Source of the DNA: Minisyncoccia bacterium
GTDB taxonomy: Bacteria > Patescibacteriota > Minisyncoccia > Phycocordibacterales > Phycocordibacteraceae
Direction: 5' to 3'
Length of the DNA: 64,000 bases
NCBI GenBank assembly: GCA_050011835.1
Contig: JBEKII010000002.1
Span: 76,173-140,172 of the forward strand
This document shows, in pieces, positions 21,422 through 35,932 of the stretch; the first letter of the stretch is position 1, and the number at the start of each line of letters is the position of its first letter. The notes beneath the pieces are model-generated. The model saw only the letters and a program-made list of their open reading frames with translations, was not told where the DNA came from and searched no databases. Position numbers and translations under genes: made by a program.

Positions 21422-21492
21422 CGCGGGGTAGAGGAGAGGTACCTCGGGAGGCCCATAACCTCCAGACGCCGGTTCGATTCCGGCCCCCGCAA
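21422..21492 (+). tRNA. tRNA-Met(CAU)
   Basis: Acceptor CGCGGGG/CCCCGCA with a C1:A72 mismatch. T8A9. D-stem GAGG/CCTC. Anticodon stem GGAGG/CCTCC with loop CCCATAA. T-arm GCCGG-TTCGATT-CCGGC. Confidence 0.75.
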
Positions 21493-21575
21493 CACGGTTG
21501 TGAGTCAGTGTCAAGTACCGCCCCGCACCAGAAGTTTTGAAAAGTTGATACAGTACCGATAGGCATGAAGCTCCG
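21488..21575 (+). repeat. att-like core CAACACGGTTGTGA plus ~80-nt tail, copy 1; overlaps the tRNA-Met 3' end
   Basis: The same core and a related tail (..CAGTACCG..GTACTGTACCGA..) recur at 32572 and 34618. Degenerate cores occur at 24752 and 35848. Confidence 0.6.
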
Positions 21576-21585
21576 AAAAAACACA

Positions 21586-21615
21586 AAAGCCGCGACGTAC
21601 GTCGCGGCTTTTGTG
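21586..21615. terminator. Bidirectional terminator (perfect palindrome)
   Basis: aaaagccgcgacg-tac-gtcgcggctttt, lying between tRNA-Met (+) and the RT 3' end (-). Confidence 0.6.
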
Positions 21616-21632
21616 TTTGTCTAGCACACATG

Positions 21633-22715
21633 TCATGAATGCATTTTGATCCAAAAATCATTCCTCAACCTTTCACTAACCCGGTACACATCAGCATGAG
21701 ACAATATCCCTAAATATGAATTGAGTGACGCCTCCGCCCGTTCTTTTGATACCGCACCTCGTCTATAATCAGAAATGATACGTCCGAGTTTTCGATACAT
21801 CCGCTTTTCAGTTTTCTTCCGCAACAGTCGGAAATGCGGAAAGGCGATGTATCCCAGAAAATCGACGCCCCTGCTGTATCGCCGTATCTCGACCTTGTCG
21901 GGGTGCAACTCAAGCTTGAGCCGTTCACGCAAGAAATCCCGCATTGGTTGCAGAAATGTTTTCAGCTTTTCCGAATCGTTGCTCACAATCAAAAAGTCGT
22001 CAGTATAGCGAACATAGTGTTTAATATATAGGTCATGCTTCACAAACTGATCAAATTCGTTCAGATAGATATTGGCAAAAAGCTGGCTCGTGAGGTTGCC
22101 AATTGGCAATCCTTTTCTCGGTGTATTTTTACTCTCTCTCTCTCTCTCTCTCTCTCTCTCTCGACAGCCCGCCGCCTCGTAACTTTCGATAATTTCTCTC
22201 ATAAGCCAGCAGGTGTCGGGATCGGTGATGCGTCTTTCGAGAATGCTGAGCAGAACATCGTGGTTAATGCTGTCGAAGAATTTCCGTACATCGCACTTAA
22301 GCGCATAGCACGATTGCGTACCGTTGTGGCTCACAGCGCGGAGCATCTGCGTGAGTATTTCAACGCCTTTATGCGTTCCTTTGCCTATGCGACACGAAAA
22401 GGAGTTGGGAATATACGTCGGCTCAAAGATTGGATTCAGGGCCGCAAACATGGCGTGATGCAGCACTCGATCGCGCACGTTCGCTTTGTATATATGCCGA
22501 AGCTTGGGATCCTGGATATAAAAGTCAGTATATGGCCCGTGCCGATAGCGCTTGGTTTGTAAATCGCGATGCAGGTCAAAAATGTTATGTTCAAGCTCCT
22601 TCTCGAATGCGAGCACGTCTTTCTTCATCCGCTTCCCGCGTTTGAATTCATCCCACGCGTGGAAGAGCGCCTCAGGAGAGACGATTCTTTCGAAAACACG
22701 GTCATATTTTTTCAT
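21633..22715 (-). CDS. Diversity-generating retroelement (DGR) reverse transcriptase
   Basis: RT domain with YTDD (YxDD) and the DGR-specific motif-4 variant IGNLTSQ (IGxxxSQ, not group II QGxxxSP). N-terminal ALFHAWDEFKRGKR block. Start taken as MKKYDRV; an upstream Met at 22754 is the alternative. Confidence 0.8.
   Translation of the reverse strand: MKKYDRVFERIVSPEALFHAWDEFKRGKRMKKDVLAFEKELEHNIFDLHRDLQTKRYRHGPYTDFYIQDPKLRHIYKANVRDRVLHHAMFAALNPIFEPTYIPNSFSCRIGKGTHKGVEILTQMLRAVSHNGTQSCYALKCDVRKFFDSINHDVLLSILERRITDPDTCWLMREIIESYEAAGCRERERERERESKNTPRKGLPIGNLTSQLFANIYLNEFDQFVKHDLYIKHYVRYTDDFLIVSNDSEKLKTFLQPMRDFLRERLKLELHPDKVEIRRYSRGVDFLGYIAFPHFRLLRKKTEKRMYRKLGRIISDYRRGAVSKERAEASLNSYLGILSHADVYRVSERLRNDFWIKMHS
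22132..22162. repeat. (CT)15 dinucleotide microsatellite inside the RT ORF; encodes (RE)5 on the minus strand
   Basis: 31 nt of uninterrupted CT repeat read directly from the sequence. Confidence 0.9.
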
Positions 22716-22717
22716 GT

Positions 22718-33397: not shown

Positions 33398-33412
33398 TTT
33401 TGCTGAGCCTAA

Positions 33413-34468
33413 TTATTTTCTTCGATATCGCGTCGAACGGCCGCTACCGATGCGCTCGATCATCTTGAGCCGCATGAGTTTCTGCAAGGCTTGATTCACA
33501 GTCGGGCGCGGCACTCCAGCCGCGAGAGCAATTTCGCTCGGAGTCGCAGTGCCGGTCTGTGGAATATTCTTCCACACTAATTCCTGTTGCGGCGAAAGAA
33601 GTTGTTCGGTCTGTGCGTGCGTGAGCAAGTTGAGTGCCTGTTTCGACTGTTCAAGAATCACATTCAAGAAGAAGCGCATCCACGGTGTGATATTCGCATT
33701 GTTAAATCGAAACGTTCGTTGGCTCTGTCGGAGCGCGAGATAGTAATCGGTCTTATGGTCCTCGATGATTTTCTCATGCGAGACGTAGGGCATATAGGCG
33801 TAGCCCTGCTGCAAGAGAAGAAGGTTCGTGAGAATGCGTGACAGCCGCCCGTTGCCGTCCTCGAACGGATGAATGGCGAGAAATTCCACGATGAAGTTGC
33901 CGATGACGAGAAGAGGATGAAATTTCCGTTCGAGAATCGCTTGTTGTGTCCACTCCACGAGTTCCAACATTTCTTTGCCGGTCAGATACGCAGGCGTAGT
34001 ATCGAACAGCACACCAACCGACTCATCGGCGGCGTTTACCATCTCAACACGATTTTCTTTCTTCTTGTATTCGCCCCGATGCAGTTCGTCTTTTTCTGCA
34101 TGCTTCAAAAGCTCGCGATGGAAAAATTTAATAGTGCCTTCGGAGAAGGGAATTGATTGATACGAATTGAAGACATTCGTGAGCAATTCATAATATCCTT
34201 GGACCTCTTGCGCATCGCGACTTCGGAATCGCTTGAGCGAGAGTCCGCGCATGAGTTTCTCTACGTCTTCATCAGAGAGTTCTGATCCTTCGATGCGCGT
34301 CGAAGCGCCTGTCGAAGTGACTAGTACTGATTTTCGCAGACGCGTGAGCACCTGCCGATCCAAGTTAGCGCCTTCAACCCACTGCCCGCGAAGCTCGTCT
34401 ATCTGGCGAATAAGCTCCGAGATTTCGTTCGGAAAGGTCGTTATTCTTTTGTTAAATTTTCCATTCAT
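33413..34468 (-). CDS. Fic/Doc family protein with a C-terminal winged HTH
   Basis: Fic motif HPFEDGNGRLSR (HPFxxGNGR). Start set at the internal Met (MNGKF...). C-terminal wHTH. Confidence 0.8.
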   Translation of the reverse strand: MNGKFNKRITTFPNEISELIRQIDELRGQWVEGANLDRQVLTRLRKSVLVTSTGASTRIEGSELSDEDVEKLMRGLSLKRFRSRDAQEVQGYYELLTNVFNSYQSIPFSEGTIKFFHRELLKHAEKDELHRGEYKKKENRVEMVNAADESVGVLFDTTPAYLTGKEMLELVEWTQQAILERKFHPLLVIGNFIVEFLAIHPFEDGNGRLSRILTNLLLLQQGYAYMPYVSHEKIIEDHKTDYYLALRQSQRTFRFNNANITPWMRFFLNVILEQSKQALNLLTHAQTEQLLSPQQELVWKNIPQTGTATPSEIALAAGVPRPTVNQALQKLMRLKMIERIGSGRSTRYRRK

Positions 34469-34594
34469 AATCTTATATATCTGATACATGAGATTGTATA
34501 AGATTACATAAGAAAATGCAATATCCTGAGTACTGAACGGGGCGTAGAATTTAATAAAAGCAAGTAGATAAGCCACATGTGACACTTTTCAGAT

Positions 34595-34730
34595 AAGTCC
34601 AGTTCGATTATGGACCCGGCAACACGGTTGTGATGTCGGTTTCCAGTACCGGTGTTCGTCAAAATCAGTACTGTACCGACTCCTTCGATTGGCCAAAAAA
34701 GCGCATAAAACCACATGAGCGCCAAGAAAG
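34595..34730 (+). repeat. 30-mer (integrase 3'-end duplicate) plus att-like core plus tail, copy 4
   Basis: aagtccagttcgattatggacccggcaaca-cggttgtga-tgtcggtttccagtaccgg...gtactgtaccgac...aaaagcgcataaaaccac. Confidence 0.6.
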
Positions 34731-34754
34731 CGCTATACTGCGCTCATCGGTCCT

Positions 34755-35747
34755 ATGAAGAAGAGTACACTTATCCGAACTTTCGTCATCGCGCTCTTGC
34801 TCGTGGCGCCCTCCATGGCGCTCGCAGCAGGTCTTACCTCATCGCAGGTAGGCGCGATCCTTGGTCTCCTTCGCGCCTTCAATGCACGGGAATCACTCAT
34901 CGCGAGCGTCGCCGACGCCCTCGTGCCCTCGCAGCTTGCCGATCCGCTTCCGGCACCAGTCTCTTCATCGACTCCCGTCGTACCACTTACGCGCCCTGAC
35001 ACGAGCGGCAGTCCCTACACCTCGGGCAGCCTCGGCTACGATCTTTCATTCAATACGCAAAACTATCCCCAGATACCGTTCGGCTTCGTTGTAGTCGGCG
35101 TCACGACCGGCAAGGCATACGCGTATAATGAGCGCGCCCGCTCGGAATATTCTTTTGCGCAGTTCGGTTCCATACGACCGACCTTCTATCTCAATCTCAA
35201 TGCACCGTATGGCAGCACCGCGACGAGCACGAACATGAACGCACCACATGCCTGCGATGCGCTTTTCGGCGCAGCCACCACATCCACTTCGGCTGGCGGC
35301 ACGTATCCAGAGCCGACCGTCTGCGCAAGCTATAACTATGGTTACAACGCAGCGAAAGGCGCCTACGCCTATGCGGCGGGCGCAGGCGTCTCGGCGCCAC
35401 TTTGGTGGCTCGATGTCGAGGATGCGAACAGCTGGTCGCCCGATGTCGCCGTGAACGATGCGGTGATACAGGGAGCAATGGATTACCTGAATGACGAGGG
35501 CATCCGCGTCGGCATCTACTCCGTGCCACGCATGTGGCGCGATATCGCTGGCGATAGCTTCTCTCTCGCACAATCGTTCTCGGGCAGAAGCGCCGCCACG
35601 CCAACCTGGTTTCCAATCGGAATCGCCACGGAGGTTGGAGCTCTCAATGCATGCCTCACCGGCAGCTCCCTCATCTCCGGCAGTCCCATCTGGATCATCC
35701 AGTATGAGACGGATTCGACCGCCGTCGACCAGAACATCGCATGCTAA
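34755..35747 (+). CDS. Secreted protein with a putative glycoside-hydrolase-like (GH25/DUF1906-like) domain
   Basis: 330 aa. Signal peptide plus the same conserved leader (AAGLTSSQVGAILGLLRAF). C-terminal domain with WWLDVE...SW and GIYS motifs. The family call is tentative. Confidence 0.5.
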   Translation: MKKSTLIRTFVIALLLVAPSMALAAGLTSSQVGAILGLLRAFNARESLIASVADALVPSQLADPLPAPVSSSTPVVPLTRPDTSGSPYTSGSLGYDLSFNTQNYPQIPFGFVVVGVTTGKAYAYNERARSEYSFAQFGSIRPTFYLNLNAPYGSTATSTNMNAPHACDALFGAATTSTSAGGTYPEPTVCASYNYGYNAAKGAYAYAAGAGVSAPLWWLDVEDANSWSPDVAVNDAVIQGAMDYLNDEGIRVGIYSVPRMWRDIAGDSFSLAQSFSGRSAATPTWFPIGIATEVGALNACLTGSSLISGSPIWIIQYETDSTAVDQNIAC

Positions 35748-35932
35748 GAGAGCGCCACATCAACACTTTTTCTCTCACCAAAAACTAGCAAGCAATTCTC
35801 TAAACGTTTTAAAATGTCCTCTGGATTGACTGCGGCGGGTACGGCATCGGCGCATGCAATACAGTTGTGATGTTCATATCTGCCTCGTTCAATGATGTAT
35901 ATTAGGGGCATTAATCAATTAATCACCGTATT

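Follow-up and report, generated by a model that had tools for sequence, protein, structure and literature searches.

Islands of the Enterococcus cassette chromosome (ECC) type carry ~50-bp direct repeats, and 16/32 ECCs have multiple attR sites (PMC6222049). The tycheposons of Prochlorococcus are elements that integrate in tRNA genes, a tRNA-Met among them, and leave behind incomplete copies of the tRNA; in the islands that they seed, newer integrations displace older elements inward, and past events are marked by degenerate remnants and additional partial tRNAs (bioRxiv 10.1101/2020.12.28.424599). In the same study 910/937 elements of this type had tyrosine recombinases and a minority had large serine recombinases (LSRs), many had replication modules, and the cargo included defence and niche genes. 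Here we describe a locus in a 64-kb window (64,000 nucleotides of contig JBEKII010000002.1, from a Minisyncoccia bacterium) in which the 3′ end of the initiator tRNA gene heads an array of attachment (att)-like sites, A to E, that separate four segments, S1 to S4 (Table 1). The array, from 21.4 to 35.9 kb, is very probably a genomic island that arose by serial site-specific insertion at the 3′ end of this tRNA gene.

The locus would seem to work most like the staphylococcal cassette chromosome (SCC) and ECC islands, which the CcrAB LSRs insert at the 3′ end of rlmH, and also like tycheposon-seeded tRNA islands, but we would count it a member of neither class, because its target, its recombinase set and the architecture of its sites differ. 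With SCC/ECC it shares an LSR that places islands of variable cargo at the 3′ end of a single conserved gene, att sites in direct repeat on either side, several attR sites and segments without a recombinase (here sites A, B|C, D and E, and a further locus, L178). However, the target here is the initiator tRNA and not rlmH, there is one LSR per element rather than a ccrA/ccrB pair, the repeated site is longer (left arm, core and ~100-nt tail), the modules are smaller (median 1.7 kb), and the host belongs to the Candidate Phyla Radiation (CPR); the LSRs are generic relatives with Resolvase, Recombinase and Zn-ribbon domains, and the likeness is functional only. As in tycheposon islands, integration at a tRNA 3′ end is accompanied by partial tRNA copies in direct orientation, and successive integrations have left remnants of old events; unlike in those islands, only one of the four segments has a recombinase, an LSR, no tyrosine-recombinase motif was found, and the repeat reaches ~130 nt beyond the tRNA. 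Judged on sequence, S2 would be a clear new LSR element with defined att sites, and the arm-core-tail module with its integrase-less cassettes appears to be a new form of tRNA-anchored island; searches of the literature for CPR, tRNA and integration found no description of such a system.

The tRNA-Met(CAT) at the head of the array has a C1:A72 mismatch (5′ CGCGGGG versus 3′ CCCCGCA) and is therefore the initiator, tRNA-fMet; 5′ of it lie a ligase gene, gatC, gatA and the gene of a 236-aa protein without Pfam match. Its last bases, GCAAC(A) (21489–21494), are the crossover region. Exact copies of the 15-mer GCAACACGGTTGTGA lie on the plus strand at 21489, 32567 and 34619 (0 in 100 shuffles), and none would be expected by chance. 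A sequence-only reading of this DNA had reported a 14-mer beginning inside the acceptor stem, as indeed it does (at 21490, 2 bases before the stem ends), and recurring intact at 32572 and 34618; the exact recurrence holds, but the copies lie at 32567 and 34619, and the coordinates given for the repeat were off by 2–9 nt. The related tails that it saw after each core are also real, with 76% identity over 101 nt between C and D (32567–32667 and 34619–34719), 83% over 53 nt between A and D and 76% over 46 nt between A and C; GTACTGTACCGAC is exact in the tails of both C and D. The tail of site A contains AAGTACCG and ACAGTACCG and ends in a perfect 20+20 palindromic terminator (21579–21618), and tails of its variant, d, also occur in L141, L113, L115 and L163 (L numbers denote loci from other genomes and metagenomes). 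The right half of site A is divergent, reading AGTCAGTGTCA where others have ACGCCAGGAAC, for which reason A may be a poor LSR target.

Two degenerate copies had been placed at 24752 and 35848. The former is indeed a copy, but proved to be part of a 34-nt repeat (24733–24766) comprising a pseudo-T-arm and CAACAAGGT, the left half of the core (24757–24766), where it ends abruptly: past the pseudo-T-arm it continues with CCCGGCAACAAGGT, and then all similarity is gone. The T-arm mimic, TCCAG-TTCGATT-ATGGA, has 2 compensatory changes relative to the real T-stem, and copies of pseudo-T-arm plus acceptor lie in direct orientation at 24733–24762 and 34595–34624. The second copy is better placed at 35857–35870, where with 2 mismatches it is not significant alone, but its left flank matches a conserved class of arm. 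This site, E, is the last junction of the array that can be recognised, and self-comparison found no further core copies elsewhere in the 64-kb window. Sites C and D have close counterparts in other genomes: C is 85–87% identical to DNA directly 3′ of tRNA-fMet in L101, L168, L092, L109 and others and is homologous to the sites of L006 and L001, and the region of D recurs, 99.9% identical, in L128, which is the same strain.

Searching JGI/ENA metagenomes with the pattern CAACACGGTTGTG-N10-CMAGTACCG recovered 95 stretches, and IMG/VR none; with the window, L001 and L006 these made 98 loci with 132 cores (≤1 mismatch). The core followed the 3′ half of tRNA-fMet, either an intact gene or the 3′ exon of an intron-bearing one, in 49/132 cases, and 83/132 cores were at pseudo-sites, including 18 after a class-2 pseudo-T-arm (the type at window sites B and D), 19 after a class-3 arm ending in GGTACnGTACCG, 7 after the 5′ end of a minus-strand Fic gene, and 2 after the arm type of site C. 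Two to four cores were present in 24 loci, at a median spacing of 1.7 kb, and the core strand was that of the tRNA except for one core, itself with 1 mismatch. Stretches from the same contig were contiguous, and each contig therefore has one locus; cargo between cores varies among the 95 stretches. Hardly any variation is seen in the first 32 nt that follow the tRNA, even in loci whose T-stems differ, and the docking site is made up of GCAACA together with the ~26 invariant bases that come next (CGGTTGTGACGCCAGGAACCAGTACCG). Among CPR relatives tRNA-fMet genes normally end in GCAACA; the more distant ones lack CGGTTGTG... and the tail, and yet both occur after divergent tRNA-fMet alleles in other synteny (L107, L142, L156). 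It is this patchiness that argues for a tail that travels with inserted DNA.

The best matches of the window's gatA came from Parcubacteria/Patescibacteria metagenome-assembled genomes (79, 73 and 70% identity), and the two related genomes examined, L006 and L001, differ in gene order instead of presenting the same order without repeats. L006 (gatA 73%) has tRNA-fMet, core, homologous tail and terminator, followed by housekeeping genes (SAM synthetase). In L001 (gatA 79%) tRNA-fMet contains a group I intron (58.6 bits), and cores at 13681, 13837, 15477 and 16739 bound a 156-nt gene-less unit and two single-gene cassettes, with conserved right tails and ~160-nt left arms. The proposal of a hotspot for tandem integration at the tRNA-fMet 3′ end is thus upheld by these two genomes, the 95 stretches, the junctions of S2 and site E. 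The right flank has no synteny in common with L001 or L006 by which to place the distal end of the island.

The tRNA gene and its surroundings vary in other ways. Group I introns scoring above the Rfam gathering score lie in the tRNA-fMet anticodon loop of L001 (13416–13618, +) and L176 (1685–2028, −), 3′-exon junctions of intron-bearing tRNA-fMet recur in many metagenome loci, and a conserved minus-strand open reading frame (ORF) just upstream of the intron-bearing tRNA in L157 and L176 is a possible homing endonuclease. L112 has a 218-nt gene-less insert (2168–2385) directly 3′ of tRNA-fMet, flanked by a 17-nt direct repeat, CCGGCCCCCGCAACACG, and containing the tRNA 3′ end in inverted form, interrupted by a hairpin; a similar ~100-nt insert lies between CAACACG and GTTGTGA in L002.

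S2 is the one segment of the four that encodes a recombinase, an LSR with the expected domains (N-terminal resolvase catalytic, recombinase and zinc-ribbon), and its boundaries can be read from relatives. Four relatives of the LSR, P0001 (97% amino acid identity, L176), P0002 (87%, L177), P0005 (73%, L180) and P0010 (69%, L181), have 3′ ends that abut a real tRNA-fMet beside a c1-gatA-gatC-ligase block, with junctions reading ...CCGGCCCCCGCAACAAGGTCGGACT... (in L176 ..TTCGATTCCGGCCCCCGCAACAAGGTCGGACTGTCCAGCACGGAAGTCC, and identically in L177). The window junction reads ...ATGGACCCGGCAACAAGGTCAGACTGTCCAGCACGGAAGTCC and matches those of all four, which identifies site B as attL; GCAACA|AGGTC(A/G)GACT describes the attL junction in the window, L176, L177, L180, L181 and L182. 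Within site B an inverted T-arm fragment (24690–24706) and the pseudo-T-arm (24733–24756) precede GCAACA (24757–24762) and the element-derived AGGTCAGACTG, and the arm matches those of L132 and L144 at 90% identity over 80 nt. L180 holds a complete element, the other end of which, 8.0 kb from attL, reads CTAATCTGGTGCCAATCCCGTCCTACTATTG-CAACACGGTTGTGACACCAGGAAC and then enters a tail. The P arm at window site C (GAAATCTGTTGCCAATCTCGTCTAACGGATG-CAACACGG...) is of the same class as that in L180, L083 and L178 (twice, L178 holding two class-7 attR sites), and in the window, L083, L178 and L180 it is followed by GCAACA|CGGTTGTGAC; since the right end of L180, L083 and L178 share this arm class, C is attR. 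At position 6 of the core every attL has A, and attB and attR have C; strand exchange therefore took place within GCAACA (24757–24762 and 32567–32572).

Together B and C rebuild a D-like site, from which it follows that S2 landed in the displaced S1/S3 junction and not at the tRNA. The junctions thus point firmly to an autonomous 7.8-kb element that would have been inserted by its own LSR into an internal, displaced pseudo-site. Where the sequence-only reading had serial integration at one tRNA, the hotspot stands, but B and C are the two ends of one internal LSR insertion and not separate cores. The DNA of the LSR is 92% identical to that of L176 and the flanking gatA region 71%, a difference that indicates a recent horizontal arrival of S2; a further relative, P0008 (L182, 73%), is placed at a class-3 pseudo-site instead of tRNA-fMet.

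In domain architecture, and in the position of the integrase gene at the element edge by attL, the S2 LSR resembles phage-type LSRs (phiC31, Bxb1, TP901-1 class). As with those, attP and attB have only short identity around the crossover (GCAACA.GGT) and attL and attR are hybrid; the attP can be reconstructed as …CTAACGGATGCAACAAGGTCAGACTGTCC…, and recombination of attP with attB by this LSR is predicted. It differs from them in its target, a tRNA 3′ end plus a module from earlier inserts, in pseudo-sites with unrelated left halves (class-2 and class-3 arms), and in the lack of recognisable phage genes. S2 was considered as a prophage and the idea rejected: PHROGs gave weak endolysin-domain matches only, with nothing recognisably phage. 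Neither the core pattern nor the attL pattern had a match in IMG/VR, and the window element has no recognisable replication module. The LSR itself has a single relative in IMG/VR, in L184 (UViG_3300025323_000435, 40.7 kb; 72%, cut by the contig end), which has a DUF5659 gene in common with S2.

Besides the LSR gene, S2 contains several ORFs without family, among them a small ORF, one of 479 aa and one of 172 aa that adjoins the P arm, as well as genes of a DUF5659 protein and a 606-aa PG_binding protein and a LOOT RNA, and G+C falls to 0.39–0.46 at 27.8–29.6 kb. The backbone genes common to S2-type elements are the DUF5659 gene, the 172-aa ORF beside the P arm and the small ORF beside the LSR gene (26264–26497, −), which is a candidate recombination directionality factor. 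The 3′ end of the LSR ORF runs across attL, its last ~20 codons (..SDLVAGSIIELDFLWPRCLNF) being encoded by repeat B (the pseudo-tRNA), and this accounts for the variable C-termini of its many homologues (513–696 aa); in the excised element the LSR would end differently, ~31 codons into the P arm. The LOOT RNA (Rfam RF03000; 29159–29277, +; 84 bits against a gathering score of 46.4, E 5.6e-15) lies directly upstream of the PG_binding gene (29337–31157). An inverted T-loop/T-stem fragment, GGGCGTCGGAATCGAAC (reverse complement of GTTCGATTCCGACGCCC), such as that in site B, is found ~35 nt upstream of the direct pseudo-T-arm also in class-2 arms of L096, L100, L102, L111, L144 and others; with the direct pseudo-T-arm it makes a ~50-bp inverted-repeat unit, which could be the att site of another recombinase or the footprint of inversions.

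The division into a DGR segment (S1, where DGR is diversity-generating retroelement), a serine-integrase segment (S2), a TPR and Fic segment (S3) and a segment with a 330-aa protein (S4) was confirmed by Pfam and, for S1, by its template repeat (TR) and variable repeat (VR). S1 is a DGR, with a reverse transcriptase (RT) and a TR/VR pair, a 131-nt inverted repeat with 79% matched positions, in which differences are concentrated at TR adenines (18/27 mismatches, with 9/27 elsewhere). The whole DGR is one compact 3.3-kb module flanked by two att-like sites, a layout that suggests DGRs travelling as cassettes in these genomes. The contents of S3 occur directly 3′ of tRNA-fMet elsewhere, as TPR-Fic in L085 and as Fic alone in L101 and L168, with 80–85% identity starting exactly at the core, and a minus-strand Fic gene adjoins a core in 19 loci. 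The S4 protein had a weak PHROG endolysin match (2e-4), and homologues of its gene lie 3′ of a core in L113 and L165.

Table 1. Coordinates of the array features in the window (positions are those of the whole stretch).
Feature	Position	Strand	Evidence or remarks
Initiator tRNA-fMet(CAT), intron-less, array head	21422-21493	+	ARAGORN; Rfam RF00005 55.8 bits
Site A: true T-arm/acceptor, core CAACACGGTTGTGA (21490-21503), variant-d tail	21465-21620	+	
S1, compact DGR module, no integrase	21504-24732		
S1 RT	21633-22754	-	Pfam RVT_1 7e-29
S1 TR	23109-23239	-	
S1 target, 301 aa, VR 24449-24579 at 3′ end	23676-24581	+	
Site B, attL of the LSR element, class-2 arm	24687-24766	+	33/34 identity to 34595-34628
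LSR, 520 aa	24705-26267	-	Pfam Resolvase 1.3e-30, Zn_ribbon_recom 3e-9, Recombinase 2e-4
S2, ~7.8-kb LSR integrative element	24763-32566		
attR of the LSR element	32530-32581	+	P arm GAAATCTGTTGCCAATCTCGTCTAACGGAT, then GCAACA (32567-32572), then host-side CGGTTGTGA
Site C: core, canonical tail (ACGCCAGGAACCAGTACCG ... GTACTGTACCGAC ... terminator), decayed T-arm-like and core remnant	32567-32793	+	
S3 segment: TPR and Fic-HTH	32813-34585		Pfam
S3 TPR protein	32813-33397	+	Pfam
S3 Fic-HTH protein	33413-34585	-	Pfam
Site D, intact pseudo-site: pseudo-T-arm, core 34620-34633, tail	34595-34719	+	
S4 protein, 330 aa, signal-peptide-like N-terminus	34755-35747	+	no Pfam match
Site E: decayed class-3 arm (..GGATTG..GCGGCGGGTACGGCATCGGCGCAT), then GCAATACAGTTGTGA	35810-35873	+	aligns with L001 class-3 arms

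In the explanation that we favour, each inserted module would bring its own copy of the docking site, with a left arm (often a T-arm mimic), the core and a right tail of ~100 nt ending in a terminator. Newcomers would enter on the tRNA side, giving the order tRNA, tail(n), cargo(n), arm(n), core, tail(n−1) and so on to arm(1) and the native flank, and the oldest junction would keep arm and core and no tail; site E fits this expectation, having arm and core and no tail present, and agrees with the earlier proposal that the old attR is displaced each time. S1, S3 and S4 would be non-autonomous or decayed members of the same site family that arrived before S2, probably in the order S4, S3, S1, and that may now be both cargo and extra landing pads. 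If still mobile, they might be moved by an LSR in trans or by homologous exchange through their ~150–300-bp conserved ends, a mode of movement that we infer. Not every insertion would have been made at the tRNA itself, S2 having apparently entered an internal, displaced site.

Comparison between loci gave a view of how arrays change. L109 and L138 have in common 2448 nt at 99.96% identity (core, tail, restriction–modification (RM) cassette, class-3 arm, core, tail), which begins inside the tRNA 3′ half; one of the two tRNAs has an intron, and the anticodon stems differ. The backbones of L138 and L157 are 99.8% identical over 5.2 kb with different cargo, and the whole tRNA-fMet and array segment lies in opposite orientation relative to gatA-c1, with a breakpoint at the c1 stop codon; this flip might also stem from a chimeric assembly. 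The same flip, this time relative to a second conserved block, is seen in L085 and L109. The TPR gene behaves as an indel inside its module and is not core-bounded. No pairs of empty and occupied alleles at ≥90% identity were found by megablast, and looser blastn gave mostly repeat-driven matches. RM and methylase families dominate the 126 cargo families, and LSRs are the only recurrent recombinase (126 families, with a Pfam summary of the 25 top families). In L081–L175 defence-type cargo included N6_N4/N6 DNA methylases, DpnII, Type ISP, ResIII, ParB-methylase fusions and Fic; L124 has an RT fused to a trypsin-like protease, and there is metabolic cargo too (P-type ATPase, isochorismatase, ZIP transporter).

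An LSR of a second family, c12, occurs in 12 loci, and in 11 of them its gene is on the minus strand. Elements with a c12 LSR start with tail variant b, and that in L140 ends in a class-3 arm and core. In L151 (3380–3660) the LSR is 94% identical to that of L132 from residue 26, and its first 25 codons are replaced by class-3 arm, core and tail; the junction is at RYC codons, antisense of the recurrent ACAGTACCG motif, and the catalytic-site context changes from YAR-KST to RTH-KST. The idea that class-3 arms are relics of the 5′ coding end of c12 LSRs was rejected, the similarity being clear in L151 only and E ~0.06–0.5 in others. An att site at the 3′ end of c12 LSR genes was not found either, as the 3′ flanks are not conserved. 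Directly upstream of the c12 LSR start codon in L086, L094, L121, L124, L132, L152 and L154 is a conserved sequence of ~70 nt with the palindrome CATTGTGGTTACTTGCTAATTCGCCCTACCACAATG...GACGCAACCCGCGC..GAGTCCAGACC, right after which similarity stops; it may be an att site or an operator.

Several observations weigh against the account of serial site-specific insertion. S1, S3 and S4 are without a recombinase gene, and their site-specific insertion is something that we infer from sequence. Moreover, the junctions of these integrase-less modules look like complete sites on both sides, which is not explained by a simple LSR reaction between attP and attB because that gives hybrid attL and attR. 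The right boundary of the island is provisional: an isochorismatase gene lies at 37033–37605, 1.2 kb beyond site E, and because isochorismatase is an array cassette in L113 (core-bounded, 5068–5898) and L137 (inside an array), an array with decayed sites may extend beyond 35.9 kb. The c12 LSR has its own conserved upstream palindrome and was seen to abut a core only in L151, and any link between it and the core is tentative. The search pattern needs an intact core and tail start, so that decayed or occupied sites are under-sampled, and mobility of the island was judged from assembled sequences.

The small size of many modules invites comparison with integrons, and it is possible, as a tentative proposal, that CPR/Parcubacteria have an undescribed serine-recombinase system for cassette capture anchored at the initiator tRNA gene, in which small, often single-gene modules, each with a bipartite site (arm, GCAACACGGTTGTGACGCCAGGAACCAGTACCG, tail), would be inserted, stacked, excised and inverted by LSRs in trans. 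In a more specific form, which we consider unlikely, the locus would be an integron-like platform on which an LSR acting in trans (c12 or L151 type) takes up and excises cassettes as small circles, each with one composite arm-core-tail site, and the tRNA-fMet end is the primary capture site. Single-gene cassettes of 0.8–2.6 kb with conserved ends on both sides (L001, L119, L174, L133, L115), two or three generic arm classes common to unrelated cargo and the gene-less 156-nt units of L001 and L131 are what such a platform would produce; in L151, too, the LSR gene is joined at the ACAGTACCG motif to class-3 arm, core and tail with nothing in between, and in L140 the c12 LSR element ends in class-3 arm and core. 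Yet no recombinase stands consistently beside the tRNA end, c12 LSR genes mostly lie far from cores, at distances of hundreds to thousands of bases, and the conserved palindrome upstream of them is a different one, and the similarity of class-3 arms to LSR 5′ coding sequence is significant in L151 only. The likeness to integrons, in short cassettes, a reiterated one-orientation recombination site and a fixed primary site, also has its limits: there is no IntI-type tyrosine recombinase with attI and Pc promoter, the site is conserved in sequence (first 32 nt) and not in folded structure, showing no covariation, and the genes lie in both orientations with an own terminator per tail, unlike promoterless integron cassettes. 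If cassette capture is nevertheless true, these minimal genomes would have an integron-like store of RM systems, RT-protease, Fic and whole DGRs, in which each stored cassette adds a landing pad.

A conservative alternative is that the repeat is the native trailer and terminator of tRNA-fMet, copied by unequal or homologous recombination, with cargo swapped by RecA-dependent recombination, for instance after DNA uptake, through 150–300-bp repeats as homology arms, and site-specific integration limited to the LSR element. The tail does always end in a terminator and lies directly 3′ of the tRNA in 49 loci, including array-less ones such as L006; the repeats, 76–95% identical over 100–230 nt, are long enough for homologous recombination, and the TPR indel inside its module is not core-bounded. 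Homologous recombination between long repeats can certainly reshuffle arrays, and it may be behind part of the pattern (the TPR indel, inversions), but it leaves the arm classes, the invariant 32-mer and the patchy tail unexplained. A tail that is absent in distant CPR with conserved tRNA-fMet, yet present behind divergent alleles (L107, L142, L156), fits mobile sequence better; left arms come in discrete conserved classes unrelated to the tRNA flank, the invariance of the first 32 nt while the T-stem varies points to recognition by a sequence-specific protein, and LSRs, to judge from their junctions, use exactly this sequence. As an account of the whole locus the native trailer is therefore improbable. 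It is harder still to credit a small structured RNA or a dispersed family like the repetitive extragenic palindromes, unrelated to integration, which we regard as highly improbable. The tail has GTAC-based palindromes as well as a terminator, and transcription of the tRNA would extend into it; however, copies are confined to a single locus in each contig, with no others in the window, no Rfam family matched the tail in the window or in the L001 array, RNAalifold of 30 diverse tails found no consensus helix other than among invariant bases (covariation term −0.03), and a hand-drawn hairpin was 68% paired with covariation not above that of shuffles (355/500 as high). Distribution, Rfam and covariation thus all failed to support a dispersed RNA or repeat family. 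ORFs cross the site in mixed frames, and the site is not coding; the notion that it is a small gene was dropped, as ORF clusters c0 and c4 span it in different frames per locus.

Two other recombination systems were considered. With 13 occurrences where 2.2 are expected, (A/C)AGTACCG motifs are over-represented, and they lie on either side of the core in direct orientation, lambda-arm-like; a tyrosine integrase with arm-type sites is nevertheless unsupported, as a tyrosine-recombinase motif was found in no ORF of the window or loci (by a crude regular expression), and no such family is among the 126. A reading of 'GCGCATAA' in the tail as a XerCD/dif site, of the kind used by integrative mobile elements exploiting Xer, was rejected, the motif lying in a terminator stem that differs between tail variants. 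Elsewhere, the window contains a tmRNA with the unusual tag AKSPYFGKVGDIAFAYATARG (53255–53676) and a tRNA-Ile with anticodon TAT (55693–55767).

CPR bacteria have genomes of ~1 Mb and cannot be grown alone, and to our knowledge their mobile elements have barely been described. If serial insertion is the right account, this locus shows where and how they gain accessory genes: one docking sequence behind the initiator tRNA, reused in at least about a hundred environmental contigs, stacks RM systems, reverse-transcriptase systems, Fic toxins and a complete DGR. The core and tail start serve as a sequence tag with which the variable island can be found in any Parcubacteria assembly. With readable attP, attB, attL and attR, the LSR of the window is directly testable and could become a genetic tool for organisms that lack any. 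It is also a concrete case of an LSR using displaced pseudo-sites, which would explain how the array grows from inside.

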